Source of the DNA: a virus
Reading direction: 5' to 3' (one strand)
Length of the DNA stretch: 64,000 nucleotides
Virus record (IMG/VR): IMGVR_UViG_3300008050_007409
The first letter of the stretch is position 1, and each line of letters starts with the position of its first letter. The notes under the pieces were generated by a model that made no database searches, was not told where the DNA came from, and saw only the letters and a list, made by a program, of their open reading frames with translations. Of this stretch, positions 12,393 to 64,000 are shown piece by piece. The translations under genes and the position numbers were made by a program.

Positions 12393-15300
12393 TCAGATCG
12401 GCTCCGCAACAGTGTCCGAAAGCTGGCCGCCGGCGGTGCCGTTCCAGTCGGTGAAGTTCTGGCTGCCACTGGGTAGCCCGACAGCCAGAGGAAGAACACC
12501 ATCTCGCCGGATGGCCTGCGTGGTTCCAGAGTTACCTGAGTAACTGGAAGTCAGCGTGATGTTGACTCCTGAGATCGTCAAGATCTCCGCCACAGGTTCC
12601 CCGCCAGGAACCGACTGAATCCAGTCGCCCACGGCGAGCTCGCCAGTCCCGGTGGCGGAGAGGTCAGAGCTGCAGACCACGGCGCCCGAGCTGTTGGCGA
12701 AAAGCAGGGTGTCCGAGAGGACATTGGCGGCGATGTAGGCCCGCACCAAGGTCTGATCTTCAGTAGCGACCGGAGTGACCTGGATGCTGTCGTTGTCGAT
12801 GATCGAGGTGACCTCGTGCCAGGTCCCGTCCCTGGCCACGATGAACTTGTCCGTGGTCGAGCTGTTGTCGTGGACCTCCCAGTCCTCCCCGGAGAGGCCC
12901 GCGAAATCGGCATCGTAGGCGAACTTGAGATTCTCGTCGTCCGTGACCTCCGTGATAGTCACGTAGCCTACGGCTCCGATCTTCAGCCGGGTCAGGTTGG
13001 TCGGGGGAGTCGCGGCGCCTCCGTTGGGGATCGAGGTGAGGAAGTTCTCCCCGGTCACGGTGAAAGTGATGGGACCAGAGCCCGGACTGTCGGTGTCGCC
13101 ATCCCCAGAGCCAGAGTCCCTGAGCAGGCCGAGCTCCGTGATGTACTCGACGTTCCCGTTCCCCTCGACACCAGCCGAGAACTCCGTAAAGGTCGAGCGG
13201 CCCGTCAGATGATCCTCTCCGTAGCCAACCGAGAGATCCACCACGAACGTGAACTCCTCCTCCGGGCACTGCTCGAGGAACTGGTCGTGGAAGGCTTCTC
13301 GGTAGTCCGGGTCCAGCAGCGTGAGCTGGTAGACCCCGTCGCTGCCTCCGAAGACCGTGTTGAAGGTCAGGGCGTCGTCGGCGCCGACGTTGGACACCTC
13401 GCCCCAGATCTTGAGCTGCCCTGTCGTGAGCCAGGCGACGCCGGTATCATCATCAGTCAGAGGTGCGTCCAGCGTGACCTCCGTGGAGCTGTCCACGGAC
13501 TGCACCTCGTACTCGGTGCCGTCGATGGTCATCATGTCGCCGTCTTCGACGCCTGCGAAGCCCGTCACTGTGTCGGTGAAGGTGTTGGATCCCGATGTCG
13601 CGACGCCGTCTGCCCCGGAGAGCTGCAGGGCGACGGCGACGTAGGTGTTGGTCAACGCCCCGGACCCGATCTCAGTAGTCCAGGCTGTCCCTACGCCAGC
13701 TCCGGCTCCTGAGCCGTTGGTGAGGGTGGCCGTGCCCGTCAGGTAGTACCTGACCTCGGAGTCGCTGTAGACGCCCTGGAGCTGGGCGGAGGTGTAGTCC
13801 TTGCCCGTCTCCCGCATGGCCGCGGAGGTCTCTCCCCACTCGTCCACGCCTTGATCGTACTTCCAGTCAGCCTCCTCCCCCTCGTAGATCGCGTCGTCGT
13901 AGGCCACCAGAGGAGGCTCGTCGCAGGGGATGTCGTAGAGGTTCAGGGCCAGGACGAACTTCAGCTCGTCGTCCAGGTCGACCTCGTCGGTCACGTCCTT
14001 GTGGACGACGAACAGCGCGGACTTCCAGGTGGGCTTGATCGTCTCCACGAAGGACGCGGCGCCTGAGAGGTCCTCGATGTCGAAGGCGTCGATGTTGAGG
14101 AACACCGCGAAGGTGTGGAACTTCTCCACCTCGTGCAGATCGAAGTGGATGAACCACTCCGGACGGGAGAGGTAGTCCTTGATCTGCACCCCGTCGCAGA
14201 GGGGCTGGAAGGCCTTGACCTCGTCCCCCACGACCAACGAAGTCCCCACCAGCAGCGGGTAGAGGTAGCCTGTGCCGTCGATGGTGAGCTCACCGTAGTC
14301 GCCGGAGTAGGCCTCGTTGATGGAGTCGACCTCCCCCGCCTCCTCGGCGATGGGCAGGCCCAGGAGGATCTGCACTCCGGCCTTGATGGAGCTCGGGGTC
14401 GGGCCCTGGTAGTAGGCGTAGTAGAGCCCGCGGACCTTGGAGCGGTAGGTGGCGCTGGACTCCTCGTTGCCCAGGCCCACGTGGGCGCCGAAGTTGTTGT
14501 AGAGCACGTCCTCGTCGTAGGTGCTGTACTCAGCCCACATCGCCGAGGCCGGCGGCTCCTTGAACTGGAAGGCTGATCCGACCACCTCGAAGTCCGTCCC
14601 CTCGTAGAGGTAGACCTCTGGCGTGGTGACCTGGTCCTGCAGGATGGGGGCGGACAGGAGCGTCTCCTCGACGGTCGGATCGAAGTAGATCCAGGTGTCC
14701 GTGTAGCCGGTCAGGGCCTTCCTCCGTGCCTTGGTCGGGATCGAGCCGCCGAACAGCGTGCCCCCAGACCCGTCTGAGACGTAGCGCAGATCGATGGCGG
14801 CCGTGCCGAACTGGTCCACGGTGAAGGTCGGATCTCCAGCCAGGTTGGGGAGGTCCAGAGACACGCTGGTCCTCTGGAGCTTGCCCACGATGGAGTAGGT
14901 GATCCCCGAGCTTCCTGCGGGCAGAGACGAAGAGGCCACGACCAGGGTGCCGCCGGCGACCGTCACGATCTCGTACTCGTCGGTGTCAATGATCAGCGTG
15001 TCTCCGGCGACTACGCCGTCGTCGTCGAAGTCCTGACTCGAGTCGGAGAAGCCCGCGGTGTAGATGTCCGAGGAGTCGGTCGAGTCACACTCCCCTTCGG
15101 TGCCCGTGGCCTTCTCGGCCTCGAGCTCGTGAAGGGTCAGGGTCAGGATCCCGTCCTTCGCCTCGTAGCTGGCCTCGAAGCTGTACTCGGTGTCGATCGC
15201 CATCTCCCAGGAGCCGGTGGTGCTGGTGAGCACTCCGATCTGGGAGTAGTGCCCGACGAAGGGGAAGAGCACGCCGTCCCCGTCCGCCACGGCGCCGACG

Positions 15301-15872
15301 ACCAAGGCGTTGGCGATGGCGTTCTTGTCGGTCGAGCTGAAGTAGCCGAACTGCGCCCCGGACCAGATCGACACCTCCGAGAAGGAGGCTGTCACCGACC
15401 AGGAGAGCGAACCATCCTGGGTGGAGGATCCGTTCAGAGCTGTCGTGGACTTGTCGTGGCCGCGCCTGTTGACCCAAGAGCCGTCCAGGCGGAAGTAGGT
15501 CCCGTCCCACTCCAGTCGATTAGAGACACCGACCGTCGTCAGTCCTGGATCCTTCGTGAAGGTCTCCGTCTTGATCAGGTCGTAGAGGATCCACTTCCGC
15601 TGCTGATGGACCGGGATGTCCTTCAGGGAGTAGGACGCGCCGGCCTGCCAGGCGTCGAGCATCAGGCCGGAGGTCGTCCTGATCATGGCCTCCCAGGAGT
15701 GGGTGAAGACCTCCCGGTCGTCCATGAGGGCGCGGTAGGCGGAGGGCAGGAGCTGCCAGATGAACTCCCCGCTGACCTCGTCGGCGTAGACCGGGTCGTA
15801 GCCCTTCTGGGCATCGGAGATGGTGGACTCAACGGTTGATCCACCGAAGTCCCCGCCGAGGAAGTACGCCAT
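12393..15872 (-). CDS. large baseplate wedge-like structural protein (1159 aa)
   Basis: LYNNFG..YRSKVRGLYYAYYQGPTPSSIKAGVQILLGLP and FVETIKPTW resemble P2 gpI/T4 gp7-type wedge segments; very acidic. Confidence 0.65.
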   Translation of the reverse strand: MAYFLGGDFGGSTVESTISDAQKGYDPVYADEVSGEFIWQLLPSAYRALMDDREVFTHSWEAMIRTTSGLMLDAWQAGASYSLKDIPVHQQRKWILYDLIKTETFTKDPGLTTVGVSNRLEWDGTYFRLDGSWVNRRGHDKSTTALNGSSTQDGSLSWSVTASFSEVSIWSGAQFGYFSSTDKNAIANALVVGAVADGDGVLFPFVGHYSQIGVLTSTTGSWEMAIDTEYSFEASYEAKDGILTLTLHELEAEKATGTEGECDSTDSSDIYTAGFSDSSQDFDDDGVVAGDTLIIDTDEYEIVTVAGGTLVVASSSLPAGSSGITYSIVGKLQRTSVSLDLPNLAGDPTFTVDQFGTAAIDLRYVSDGSGGTLFGGSIPTKARRKALTGYTDTWIYFDPTVEETLLSAPILQDQVTTPEVYLYEGTDFEVVGSAFQFKEPPASAMWAEYSTYDEDVLYNNFGAHVGLGNEESSATYRSKVRGLYYAYYQGPTPSSIKAGVQILLGLPIAEEAGEVDSINEAYSGDYGELTIDGTGYLYPLLVGTSLVVGDEVKAFQPLCDGVQIKDYLSRPEWFIHFDLHEVEKFHTFAVFLNIDAFDIEDLSGAASFVETIKPTWKSALFVVHKDVTDEVDLDDELKFVLALNLYDIPCDEPPLVAYDDAIYEGEEADWKYDQGVDEWGETSAAMRETGKDYTSAQLQGVYSDSEVRYYLTGTATLTNGSGAGAGVGTAWTTEIGSGALTNTYVAVALQLSGADGVATSGSNTFTDTVTGFAGVEDGDMMTIDGTEYEVQSVDSSTEVTLDAPLTDDDTGVAWLTTGQLKIWGEVSNVGADDALTFNTVFGGSDGVYQLTLLDPDYREAFHDQFLEQCPEEEFTFVVDLSVGYGEDHLTGRSTFTEFSAGVEGNGNVEYITELGLLRDSGSGDGDTDSPGSGPITFTVTGENFLTSIPNGGAATPPTNLTRLKIGAVGYVTITEVTDDENLKFAYDADFAGLSGEDWEVHDNSSTTDKFIVARDGTWHEVTSIIDNDSIQVTPVATEDQTLVRAYIAANVLSDTLLFANSSGAVVCSSDLSATGTGELAVGDWIQSVPGGEPVAEILTISGVNITLTSSYSGNSGTTQAIRRDGVLPLAVGLPSGSQNFTDWNGTAGGQLSDTVAEPI
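15418..15491 (+). repeat. 74-bp dispersed repeat, copy 1 (donor, inside baseplate gene)
   Basis: 73/74 identical to 63566-63639 (G15439 vs A63587). Confidence 0.95.
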
Positions 15873-33774: not shown

Positions 33775-34437
33775 TCAGGCCTCCGAAACGACGTTGTTCC
33801 GGTTCATCAGGGCGACGTTGTCCGCGCCGGCGGCGACGCTCTCCATGTGCGGGGAGGCCGAGTTCTCGTCGATGATGAACGAGCAGACGTGGGCCCAGGC
33901 GGTGACGCCATCGTGCACGGAGTCGGAGGCCTCCAGGGCCGCCTGGATCTCGGTGCTCGACAGGTGCGAGGTCTCGTCCTCGTAGTCCGTGCTGTCGCCG
34001 TTCACGATCAGGACGAGCAGGGCAGCGCCGTCGTCGTCTTCGTCCGCGTCACCGGCTCCATCGCTGTTGCACACGATGAGGGTGCAGTAGGCGGTCTCGT
34101 CCGTGCTGAGCGACAGGGCCGTCGCGGCCGTGCCGTCCTCGTAGATGGCTGCTCCCACGCTGCCGCTGGTGGCCAGGAGGTCGGTGTTGGTCAGAGCGGA
34201 GATCGTCTGCATCAGGCGCCCGCCCAGCATGCAGCGCAGGGCGGTCATGTCGGCGCTGAAGGTGCCCGCCGCGATCGAGGAGCCCTCGGTGACCACGCCG
34301 CCCTCGAGAACCTCGCTCCGCTCACGGAAGGCGTTCACGATCTTCTGGCGGATCAGCTTGAGCTCGTAGCCCCAGCCCTTGCGGGGGGTCCAGTTGAACA
34401 GCTTCTGGAGGGCGTTCTTGCCGGTGGCGAGGCTCAT
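33775..34437 (-). CDS. acidic hypothetical virion protein
   Basis: RBS AGGAG; very GC3-biased codons suggest high expression. Confidence 0.75.
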   Translation of the reverse strand: MSLATGKNALQKLFNWTPRKGWGYELKLIRQKIVNAFRERSEVLEGGVVTEGSSIAAGTFSADMTALRCMLGGRLMQTISALTNTDLLATSGSVGAAIYEDGTAATALSLSTDETAYCTLIVCNSDGAGDADEDDDGAALLVLIVNGDSTDYEDETSHLSSTEIQAALEASDSVHDGVTAWAHVCSFIIDENSASPHMESVAAGADNVALMNRNNVVSEA

Positions 34438-41700: not shown

Positions 41701-44700
41701 CCGCCCTCGCCTTCCAAGAAGTTCTGATCGAGGGGCTTCCAGTCGTCGCCCAGATCTCCCTTCATGTTGCTCACGAAGCGATCGACGGCTGCGACGAACC
41801 GGGTGTTGGCCTGGGCGTATGCCGTGCGAGTGTCCCCGATCTCCGTGCCGCTGGCGGAGCTGTAGGCCGTGGGGTCGAGGAGGTTCTTCTGCTTCAGGAT
41901 CTCGATGACCTGGGCAGCCCGGGCAGTCTCATCCTGGATGCTGCCGATCATCTTGATCTCGTCTTCCGTGAAGTTGAGGCTCTCCCCTGCGGCCTTGGTC
42001 TTCGTCGCGTCTCCGGACAGGAGTCCCTGAAGGCCCGAACCCAGCCTCCCTCCACTCGCCCCGTAGACCGTCTCCAGGAGAGCTGCCTCTTCGTCAGACA
42101 GGTCACTGTCTGAGAGCAGATCATCCTCGATGAAGCGCTGTGTCATCTCCGAGTAGGTGCTGATCCCTGTGCCGCTTCGTCCCAGTTGATCCAGGCGCTT
42201 GTCGTACTTCCCGCCGGCGAAGCCCTTGGCCTCCCGCGCATTGGCCACAGCGCGGGACTGGCTACGTCCTCTGACCTCTGCGTCCGCGATCACCCCGAGC
42301 TCTTCCAGCATCCCGCCGGCGCTCTGTCGGAGTGACATCCTGTAGTTAACGTGGCTGTCAGCCTTCAGCGCGATCTTGTGGAGCTGATCGTAGGACTCCA
42401 AGCCCTGCATCGCCTCAGCGATCTCCTCTGGAGTTCCTCCCTTCTGCGCCTCCAGGTACTTGGCGAACGCCGCCCGGGCGTCCTTGTCGGACGACAGGGT
42501 CTTGCTGATGTCGTCCTCGTCGATGCCGTCGTAGATGCTCTGGTTGTCCAGGCCGGACAGGAGCTTGTTGAGGTTCTGCTCCCCCGTCTCCCGAACGCCA
42601 GAGACCGTTCCGAGCCTACGCAACGTCCCCTTCTTGGCGATTCCCGTCTCTACGAGCTTCTCGTCCTGACGCATCGTGGAGGTCAAGAGAGTCCGGTAGT
42701 TCTTGTCGGAGATGTACTTCTCGATGTCTCCGGAGCCGCGGAGGCCCGTCTTCGTGTCGCCGCTCAGGGTGTCGCTGGCTGTAGCCAACAGCCAGAGGTT
42801 CTGCTCCTCCTTGCTGAGGTCATCCCACCCTTCGGCTTGGTAGATGTCGTTGAGGCGGTCGTAGCCGAGGTCAGACCCGCCGACGATGGTCTCTCGAGCC
42901 CGCTGGACGATGTCACCGCCACCTCCCGTGAGCCTGCTCAGGTTGGTCCTCTGGCGGTCGGTGAGCTTGGCGGACTGGGAGATCTTCAGACCCCGATTCA
43001 TGTCCTCCCTGGAGATGAATCGTCCATCTCCCAGATCGACGTGATCACCTCCCTTCTTGATCGCCTCGTTGGCGCCGATGGTGTAGGCCGAGAGCTCCGT
43101 GCGCATCCGCTCTCTGGCGCCGGGAGTGCCTCCGATCAAGGGGCCGGAGTCGCTGGTGCTGACCCCCATTAGCTGGTCAACTGGACCATACTCAAGGGCT
43201 GGGGCTACGTGCTCAAGCTGACCGTAGCGCTTCTCCCACCAGGCGGACTTGGCCAGGAGAGCTTCGCTGGCACGCTCGTAGTCCATGTCCCTGCCAGAAC
43301 CCCGTCCGTAGCGCTCGGCCAAGCGCTGATCAGACTCCCCTCCTCCGCTGTAGGTCCGGGGACGCCAGAAGGTCTCAGCGACATCCCCCCAGGAACGGCT
43401 GGCTGCTCCTCCCATGTCCTCGCCCCAGCCTCTGGCGCGAGAGAACAGCCCTCGAGTGAATCCGTAGTCGCCCGAGTTCAGGTACCTGCTGACGCTTGCT
43501 CCGATCTTGTGGTAGTTCCGGTCCTGCTCCCAGGCTTCAGTCTGAGCGGCCTCGTACTCAGCAGACGCTTGCGCCTCCAAGAGCTCTGGCATCGCCATCG
43601 TCTGGGAGAGCATCATGTTGGCCTCGTTGACGCCCATGCCCATCGTGCCCAAGTGCCTGATGATCCCCTGCTTGTTGTACCCCCCATGGAGCTGCTGGGA
43701 CTGGGCTGCCGCGATGGAGACCATCCCCATGCCTGCGTACTGCATGGCGTTCTCGCGGGCCTCCGCTGTGCCGGCACGGTGGAGGGTTCCCAGACCCCGA
43801 TTGGAGGCGCCCGTGACCATGGACTCGAGGGACTTGTCGCCCGACAGGAAGCTGTTGACCCGTCCCATGTCCATCTCGTTGCCTTCGCCGAGCATGTTGG
43901 CGATCATCACCCGGCCGCGAGAGGAGCTGAGGAAGCGCATCTGACGTGCCGCCATCCCTGCACCGACCTGGCCGACTCCGCCGGCCTCCATGACGTCCTC
44001 CTCGCTGAGGTAGCCCTGCCGCATGGCGTAGGCGACGCCAGCAGTCTGCTGCTGGGCGAAGTCGGATCCGTGACGTCCCTTCATCCCAAGCTGCCTGGCG
44101 TACTGGGTGCCGAAGCGCCCGGCGTTGACCATGTCCCCGGTGCTGAGGCCGGACATGATCTCTCGAGCTGTCTGGCGTAGGGAGGCGGCCTTGATGTCCG
44201 AGGTCGTGTAGAAGCCCTGAGTGCGGAGCTCCCCCACCATCTTCAGCGCGTCGTCCACGCTGGTCTGCATGGTGGAGGCGACCTCCTTCACCGTGTCCAT
44301 GATCTTGGTGAAGCGCTCCTTGAACTCCTTCACGTCCCGAGTGGTCTGGAACAGCTTCATGGAGTCCATCTCGCGGACCATGTCCGCCATCTGACCCACG
44401 CCCTTGCCGATGTCCCTCCCCTGATCTGCCAGGAGCTTGCCGACATTGGCTCCGTGGTGCTGGTTTCCTCCGAACTGACCGCCGATGCTGGCCATCAGAC
44501 CCTTGCCCACCATCCCCTGGTGGGCTCCGTGGAAGACCTGTTCACCTGTCTGGATCATCCCCTCTGTGATCGCCAGACCTGCGGCGATGGGAGCAGCGGC
44601 CGCTGCGAGTCCCACAGCGCCTGCGCCGGCGACGCCCATGGCGGCTCGACCGAGACTGAGGCTCGCCCTACCGACCCCTGCCGCGGTCTTGGCTCCGGTG

Positions 44701-62977: not shown

Positions 62978-63255
62978 GGACCTTCTACGTCTGGAGCGGC
63001 TCCCTTCTGGGAGAAGCCGTACAGGCTGAGAACCACTGGAGCGCGGTCGAGACGGCCGTACACCAGCAGGTCGACCGCCATGAGCACTGCGTACTGGGTC
63101 CAGTTACCCGAGTAACTCTGCTCTCCCGAGGTGAGTCGGATGACGATGAGTGGATGGCGCCTCCCTACGAGGAGCACTTCCCTGGCCTCTTCATGGACGA
63201 AGATGGCCCCCTCGACGAGAACGATCTCGTCTTCACAGTGGCCTCCCTTGAGTAG
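62974..63255 (+). CDS. acidic hypothetical protein missed by the ORF track, probable CTG start
   Basis: 93 sense codons (M)RTFYVWSGSLLGEAVQAENHWSAVETAV..DLVFTVASLE*, beginning in a CTGA overlap. Confidence 0.55.
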   Translation: MRTFYVWSGSLLGEAVQAENHWSAVETAVHQQVDRHEHCVLGPVTRVTLLSRGESDDDEWMAPPYEEHFPGLFMDEDGPLDENDLVFTVASLE

Positions 63256-63319
63256 TACTGTGAGTACCCCTCCGCCGGCCGATCGTGGCTGGCTACCCTT
63301 CGACAATCCGCAAAGCAGA

Positions 63320-63348
63320 CCCCCGGCGCCTACGACAGGTGCTGGGGG
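63320..63348 (+). terminator. GC-rich hairpin
   Basis: cccccggcgcct-acgac-aggtgctggggg followed by tt. Confidence 0.5.
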
Positions 63349-63372
63349 TTCCCGCCTTGCGACTGGAGAGAA

Positions 63373-63666
63373 ATGAACAAGGAAGAGCTGCTGGCCACGT
63401 TCGGCCAGCCCCGACGAGTCTTGGACAAGGGACACATCCGCCTGGTCGACGTGATGGGCGACGACGCTGCCATCGTGCAGGCTGCCCGAGTGTCCTACGG
63501 CGAGGGCGAGGGGCTGGAATTCGATAAGCGGAAGCTGATGAGGGACCGGGCGACCGCGTTCCACATGGGTGGAGGATCCGTTCAGAACTGTCGTGGACTT
63601 GTCGTGGCCGCGCCTGTTGACCCAAGAGCCGTCCAGGCGTTCTGGAAGGCGGTGGGGGTCCTGTGA
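63373..63666 (+). pseudogene. thyX: truncated flavin-dependent thymidylate synthase fused to foreign sequence
   Basis: [30 protein letters not shown] is the ThyX N-terminus; RHRx7S catalytic motif absent; only 97 aa. Confidence 0.8.
63566..63639 (+). repeat. 74-bp dispersed repeat, copy 2 (inside thyX remnant)
   Basis: 73/74 identical to 15418-15491. Confidence 0.95.
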
Positions 63667-63986
63667 AGCAGGCTCCCCCGACGATGGAGGAGGCGGGGCG
63701 ACCGCTCCGCTCCCCCATCACCGGCCTGTTCTGCTCAGACGACGAGTATGAGAGCGACCGGGAACACGTCATGGATCAGAGACGTAGCGACATCGCGCAC
63801 GTCGAGAAGACCATCAAGGGGCTCCGAGAGCCCGATGAGCACGTCGACTGCGACGGAGACGGGATCAGCTGCGATTGCTTCGTCAGCGAGATCGTCATGC
63901 TCTCCACTGGCTACGCCGAGGTCTGGCGCGACGGCGACGTCGTGCAGTCCGGCAAGGTCGTCTACAAGGAGGATCAGGATGCCTGA
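63663..63986 (+). CDS. hypothetical protein
   Basis: GTGA overlap; acidic; [10 protein letters not shown]. Confidence 0.65.
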
Positions 63987-64000
63987 GCAGACAGCTCTGG

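Follow-up and report, generated by a model that had tools for sequence, protein, structure and literature searches.

A probable thyX relic carrying a short templated copy of a distant virion-module gene in a phage genome

Deletions between short direct repeats, with classical examples in the rII region of T4 and in T7, arise in phage genes by replication slippage or illegitimate recombination. The locus described here resembles these cases in that its core deletion appears to join two Y-[G/A]-E-G(-E-G) coding repeats, each about 12 nt long, of which the tail-side one is seen only in a sister relic and not in the phage's own ancestor. It also resembles a second group of rearrangements, in which short pieces of DNA are copied into breakpoints. 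With MMBIR/FoSTeS and the “filler DNA” of synthesis-dependent MMEJ it shares the short copy (66-74 nt) of the same genome placed into a breakpoint, but it lies in a phage genome, and such events with an identified donor have rarely been documented in phages. Common to microhomology-mediated templated insertions and to this locus are junctions with at most a few shared bases, the putative microhomologies here being deduced from proteins, and a small local deletion, while a second rearrangement junction, here 52 nt away, is reminiscent of serial template switching. Template-switch mutations of the Ripley type, described for example in yeast (PMC8604942), use a nearby inverted repeat as template, whereas the template in the present case is located 48 kb off and in direct orientation.

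Here, we describe an open reading frame (ORF) near the end of a 64,000-nt stretch of DNA from a large, uncultured marine phage (the window), which is the minus strand of positions 5204-69203 in a 104,726-nt IMG/VR virus record. The record is linear, has a G+C content of 64% and is approximately 60% complete according to CheckV. We are fairly confident that the ORF is a non-functional relic of thyX, the gene for FAD-dependent thymidylate synthase, with at least two lesions from illegitimate recombination, namely a deletion of approximately 270 codons of the core and a templated insertion. The features of the relic and of the donor gene are compiled in Table 1.

Table 1. Features of the thyX relic, the downstream gene and the donor gene (coordinates of the window)
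Feature	Coordinates	Strand	Remarks
Donor gene, 1159-aa virion-module protein	12393..15872	-	811 homologues
Copied segment within the donor gene (codons 128-152)	15418..15491	-	Model strands 128-134 and 141-151, pLDDT above 87
thyX relic ORF	63373..63666	+	97 codons, open; SD-like GGAGAG before ATG
ThyX N-terminal codons 1-47	63373..63513	+	GC3 0.85; family-invariant residues all intact
Large-deletion junction zone (codons Y-G-E-G-E-G)	63496..63513	+	About 270 core codons missing after it
ThyX C-terminal tail, first part (codons 48-64)	63514..63565	+	Matches tails of P0009, P0013 and P0281 (FDKRK...DRATAF); GC3 0.88
74-nt donor copy	63566..63639	+	Unambiguous insert about 63570-63635; TGGG on the left and GGCG on the right may be microhomology
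Last 8 tail codons and stop	63640..63666	+	Ending as in P0009 and P0281; G-rich SD-like run; GTGA overlap
Downstream Cys-rich 107-aa gene	63663..63986	+	GTG start overlaps relic stop; 7 homologues, 53-61% identity, matching N-termini

An initial annotation of this DNA had read the ORF as a dead thyX carrying an antisense copy of a baseplate gene. As origins of the copy it had offered a template-switch or illegitimate recombination scar that destroyed thyX, a trans-antisense RNA repressing a late gene, or an assembly chimera. Its description of the sequence could be reproduced. The two copies form a direct pair on the same strand (63566-63639 and 15418-15491) with 73 of 74 nt identical, the sole mismatch being A at 63588 versus G at 15440. 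The chimeric ORF has no internal stop, and in GTGA its own stop is shared with the GTG start of the gene that follows. Of 24 codons, 4 end in A/T when read in the donor frame and 12 when read in the thyX frame, and an ATAAG is located at 63524-63528. The antisense geometry is also correct, because the donor is encoded on the minus strand and the relic mRNA would thus be complementary to the donor mRNA. A self-BLAST, which the initial annotation had proposed, was run on the whole 104,726-nt record and detected no long repeat of near-perfect identity other than the 74-nt pair (98.6%, E 1.3e-29).

Both ends of the ORF are significantly similar to full-length ThyX, which argues for a descent from thyX. 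In comparison with phage ThyX proteins (PF02511), represented by the closest full-length one found (P0009, 349 aa), BLASTP gave an N-terminal HSP over the first 47 residues (36/47, 77% identical, E 3e-23) and a second, C-terminal HSP (E 6e-12) comprising relic residues 48-64 and 90-97. The latter is interrupted by a 16-residue gap exactly at the copied block, and the same gap appears against the sister relic P0281. The last approximately 25 native residues match a C-terminal extension which in the P0009 clade ends ...FDKRK...DRATAF-N-L-G-S-S-R-E-R-K-A-FW.AVGVL. In contrast to phage ThyX, the relic is devoid of the catalytic core: the RHR(x7-8)S motif is absent from the 97-aa translation and the core columns of the alignment are all gaps. 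The Pfam model Thy1 (PF02511) reaches 13.8 bits on the relic against a cut-off of 24.8 and covers profile positions 1-30 of 191 only, and a six-frame search of the record returned the same lone N-terminal match. As the whole catalytic core is missing, the predicted product could not be an enzyme. Neither a second ThyX nor a ThyA was found in the 104.7-kb record, which, like all absence statements made here (ThyA, reverse transcriptase, second ThyX), spans approximately 63% of the phage. At least within this record, the phage no longer makes its own ThyX. An intact thyX, for which the initial annotation had proposed to look elsewhere and in relatives, was encountered as the full-length P0009, and a low-depth relative in one of the metagenome runs described below seems to carry an uncollapsed gene as well.

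The block is located in the non-catalytic C-terminal tail and the core deletion is a separate lesion; thus, contrary to the initial annotation, it was not the block that destroyed thyX. It was the in-frame deletion of the whole catalytic core that killed the gene, and the block was inserted into an already (or simultaneously) collapsed thyX. Likewise, positions 63506-63565, which had been suspected to be a further captured fragment, turned out to be the own tail of thyX, since the tails of P0009, P0013 and P0281 match it. Approximately 18-30 nt of the tail were replaced by the copied block. Counted as CACA plus the block, 78 nt stand in place of 30 nt, giving a net gain of 48 nt in frame. The 395 nt upstream of the relic (62978-63372) contain no convincing gene, show a coding-like third-position G+C in two phases and include a 33-codon acidic ORF (63154-63255) in phase with thyX. 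Debris of further genes may be present in this stretch.

Sister relics were detected by searching for proteins about as long as the relic, an approach which by its nature favours in-frame forms. The first of them, P0281 (103 aa, on a 30.9-kb contig), consists of ThyX residues 1-27, about ten odd residues, perhaps left over from the RHR region, and the last approximately 67 residues of the ThyX clade; its two HSPs to P0009 have E values of 1e-9 and 3e-25. P0281 is devoid of residues 28-47, which the present relic has kept, and retains C-terminal residues that are absent here, so neither of the two was derived from the other. A second protein, P0287 (62 aa), combines the N-terminal approximately 50 with the last approximately 12 residues (E 2e-18 and 9e-4 to P0048) and is probably a third collapsed form of thyX. 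Taken together, these proteins suggest that the collapse of thyX is recurrent in the clade and occurs in frame with differing breakpoints. Other short ThyX-like proteins were mostly fragments caused by contig ends or frameshifts and not fusions of N- and C-terminal parts. Searches for close relatives of the relic, the downstream gene, P0281, the donor and a 1134-aa gene of the window in IMG/VR, phage GenBank and GTDB returned distant ThyX proteins or nothing. One metagenome scan yielded mainly generic ThyX proteins and not the contig of P0009, which is about 2 kb long. A distant C-terminal relative of the downstream gene is encoded on a 185-kb IMG/VR contig (L152), without a thyX upstream of it.

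P0281 also provides what seems to be the best available picture of the empty site, the proteins being approximately 75% identical. Its tail reads N-M-G-S-S-R-E-R-L-A-F-W, where the present relic has H-M-G, the block and then F-W. On this picture, drawn at the protein level, ATGGG to the left and (G)GCG to the right would already have been present before the insertion, and the copy may have been primed and resolved at microhomologies of about 4 nt, with a loss of about 18 nt and a gain of about 66 nt. Again as far as proteins can tell, TGGG and GGCG are in keeping with the ancestral codons of the relatives (N-M-G and L/K-A-F). A similar comparison is possible for the core deletion. P0281 carries Y-A-E-G-E-G directly before the tail, the N-terminal part of ThyX contains Y-G-E-G, and the fusion in the present relic reads Y-G-E-G-E-G, which suggests that the deletion crossed between short direct repeats.

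Most likely, the reading frame has been retained because translation has to proceed to the native stop, with which the start of the conserved next gene overlaps. P0009, P0281 and the present relic all end in ...GVL-stop. Deletions would therefore survive if the thyX start and the native stop share a frame and the next gene remains coupled. The chance that two lesions both keep the frame is 1/9, which is suggestive only; the sister relics add weight, although the search by which they were detected favours such forms. On the other hand, the N-terminal 47 codons are entirely free of decay, as would be expected if the deletion is very recent or if the peptide itself is under selection.

The latter possibility leads to an alternative in which the mini-ORF is a new small protein, for example a fragment made of both ThyX ends that interferes with the ThyX of the host, or a protein with another role. 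It could explain why both ThyX ends have stayed in frame in three relics that collapsed in different ways and why, in the present relic, the first 47 codons preserve every residue invariant in ThyX together with a native GC3. However, the retained lengths vary widely (27, 47 and about 50 residues at the N-terminus, about 67, 25 and 12 at the C-terminus), invariant residues are no longer preserved in P0281 (Arg23 to His), and a foreign insert of 26 residues is tolerated in the present relic. Translational coupling accounts more simply for the retention of both ends, and we regard a new small protein as clearly unlikely.

Regarding the block as a copy placed into a thyX relic, the 1159-aa gene is securely identified as the donor. 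This assignment is based on codon usage, on conservation of the segment among homologues and on the absence of the block from related tails, and it bears out the direction of copying proposed initially. In detail, the GC3 of the relic is 0.85, 0.88 and 1.00 in the three native parts versus 0.54 in the block. The donor segment is aligned and conserved in 20 homologues (W.NR..G.DK.T..L.G, residues 128-152), and at the protein level the thyX tails of P0009, P0013 and P0281 continue across the insertion site without interruption. As Ala145 of the donor is the common state among the 20 aligned homologues, the single difference arose in the copy. With one change in 74 nt, located in the copy, the copying event is recent.

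The initial annotation had called the donor a baseplate gene. In fact, this label is supported by context, the donor being located two genes after an 873-aa protein with a Baseplate_J/baseplate-wedge match, but the donor protein itself has no sequence match in Pfam, PHROG or PDB; a search of the protein atlas returned nothing either. An AlphaFold model of residues 1-420 (pLDDT 81) shows a beta-sandwich at residues of approximately 100-360 (pLDDT above 90). The fold of this domain is of the ConA/legume-lectin type, with similarity to legume lectins, to calreticulin and to CBM2 in the Dit protein of phage J-1 at weak TM scores of 0.3-0.5. In this model, the donor segment forms two beta-strands of the lectin-like sandwich. 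By context and predicted fold, the donor is probably a baseplate-peripheral or tail-fibre-type adhesin, and the model suggests a carbohydrate-binding adhesin in a baseplate or tail-fibre module (window 14613-15872, minus strand).

The orientation of the two copies makes a regulatory role of the relic transcript conceivable. Its 74 nt, complementary to donor mRNA codons 128-152, would repress or time the late gene through duplex formation and cleavage of the RNase III type. Apart from the complementarity of 73/74 nt in the correct orientation, the copy has been kept identical in samples from 2017 to 2021, and the genome appears to contain a further pasted antisense fragment, the 59-nt inverted repeat described below. 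The sequencing runs in which the sequence was found were all DNA runs. On the other hand, neither a sigma-70-like promoter nor an intrinsic terminator was found, the target is located 381 nt inside the coding region rather than over the ribosome-binding site, the two related thyX tails available are free of the block, and an Rfam search gave no match, by which a known RNA family was rejected for the block. The ATAAG upstream of the block offers little help as a promoter signal. This pentamer is under-represented in the window (7 sites versus 14 expected), and at five of the seven sites (48460, 53958, 59969 on the minus strand, 60021 and 61965) it occurs in the form ATAAG-N4-YGA, in most cases just before the first gene of a run, which fits a putative phage-specific promoter element. 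The site at 63524 deviates from this form and represents the Asp-Lys codons of the conserved tail FDKRK, where P0281 has Asn-Lys. As an explanation of the block, an antisense RNA is therefore very unlikely, complementarity alone speaking for the trans-antisense repressor considered initially against the lack of promoter and terminator and the block-free relatives. The block is probably not a regulator, and its complementarity to the donor mRNA is best read as a by-product of the copying.

An assembly artefact had to be considered as well, since the record was assembled from a metagenome and assemblers can be misled into mis-joins by repeats that exceed the k-mer length. Four marine metagenome runs (X1 to X4) were therefore compared with positions 63100-64000 by means of their Logan contigs (k = 31). 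In X1, which is possibly the source sample, a single contig of 1371 nt covers both junctions with zero differences. In X2, a separate sample from a separate study, an 11.5-kb contig with a depth of 14.5 crosses the left junction and ends at 63617, and a 5.5-kb contig with a depth of 12.9 begins at 63610 and crosses the right junction into the thyX tail. The shared unitig of 52 nt has a depth of 25.3, approximately double that of these flanking contigs. The donor locus is represented by two 35.6-kb contigs (depth about 13), both of which terminate within this shared stretch and carry the sequence of the donor flanks at their loose ends. The X2 graph is thus two-in, two-out, as expected of two real loci which share an exact stretch of 51 nt. 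A 151-nt contig of X4 extends across the left junction, whereas the junctions are not covered in X3. In total, junction-spanning 31-mers are present in reads of three studies dating from 2017 to 2021. A contig that skips the block was not seen among the Logan contigs, which by their nature cannot prove such a form absent. Furthermore, the exact 97-aa protein is recorded from two contigs, the longer of which has a length of 165,236 nt. Contigs and 31-mers without differences in three studies, equal depth of two loci in the X2 graph and the second record of the protein leave a chimera extremely improbable; the junction check proposed initially thus refuted this option, both junctions being present in independent samples (X1 and X2, the left one also in X4). 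At 63472-63506, an X1 contig additionally reveals a low-depth relative with three differences over 35 nt, which past 63506 continues as an intact-type ThyX (G-E-G-T-K-K-V-T-E-D-R-G-L), and a related phage with an uncollapsed thyX seems to co-occur in this sample.

Finally, although a repeat pair of about 70 nt with one copy in a lectin-like adhesin domain recalls the template and variable repeats of diversity-generating retroelements (DGR), this reading was rejected and retains practically no probability, because no reverse transcriptase (RVT_1) was matched in the 104.7-kb record, the single G/A difference is not an adenine-specific pattern, and the adhesin copy is located at residues 128-152, conserved in homologues, and not in a C-terminal variable region.

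The scar in the thyX relic is therefore a real DNA copying or repair event, a templated insertion and as such an ordinary kind of mutational scar. The template-switch or recombination origin considered initially is supported, except that it was the core deletion and not the block that destroyed thyX. The microhomologies, the mechanism and a selection for the reading frame are what we infer from these comparisons, in the following sequence of steps. An in-frame deletion of approximately 270 codons, probably between short Y-[G/A]-E-G(-E-G) direct repeats, would have removed the catalytic core, by which codons 1-47 became joined to the clade-specific tail. A polymerase or a broken end would then have switched to the donor 48 kb away at a microhomology of about 4 nt (TGGG), copied approximately 66-70 nt and returned at a second microhomology (GGCG). 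The relic would thereafter serve only as a translational relay to the next gene. As the two lesions are 52 nt apart, they may also represent one event with multiple switches. Beyond the window end, at a distance of 1-4 kb, genes of free-standing endonucleases of the GIY-YIG (L151:4201-4539, minus strand) and HNH_3 (L151:1409-1897, minus strand) types are located, next to a gene of the Mom family (L151:540-1409), and some ThyX proteins in databases carry HNH and intein domains. On this basis, breaks made by endonucleases are a conceivable, though speculative, trigger.

A second candidate for a captured fragment emerged from the self-BLAST in the form of a 59-nt inverted repeat (34353-34411 and 43163-43221, 85% complementary, E 1.3e-10). 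One arm (34353-34411) belongs natively to a 220-aa gene (33775-34437), of which it forms codons of approximately 10-28 with a GC3 of 1.00. The arm at 43163-43221 is located in frame inside the 1134-aa gene and has a GC3 of 0.53 versus 0.78 in its flanks. By these features, it looks like an older templated insertion in inverted orientation. A broader reading of both loci, in which the in-frame collapse of thyX is selected, as a relay or as a new small protein, and the lineage, with a genome of roughly 165 kb, is unusually prone to pasting short copies of its genes into other genes through a particular replication or repair activity or with an effect on late-gene RNA, appears rather unlikely to us.

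In the thyX relic, a clean natural templated insertion with an identified donor is found in a phage, beside a deletion of the microhomology type, and it has been checked in independent samples. Such scars reveal the repair and replication errors that shape phage genomes. For annotators, the locus is a caution against taking every short antisense copy for a regulator. With the in-frame thyX stubs of three lineages, composed of N- and C-terminal parts and retaining the native stop that overlaps the next gene, it can be tested whether translational coupling is under selection instead of the protein, and these recurrent stubs may be a more useful result than the insertion scar itself.
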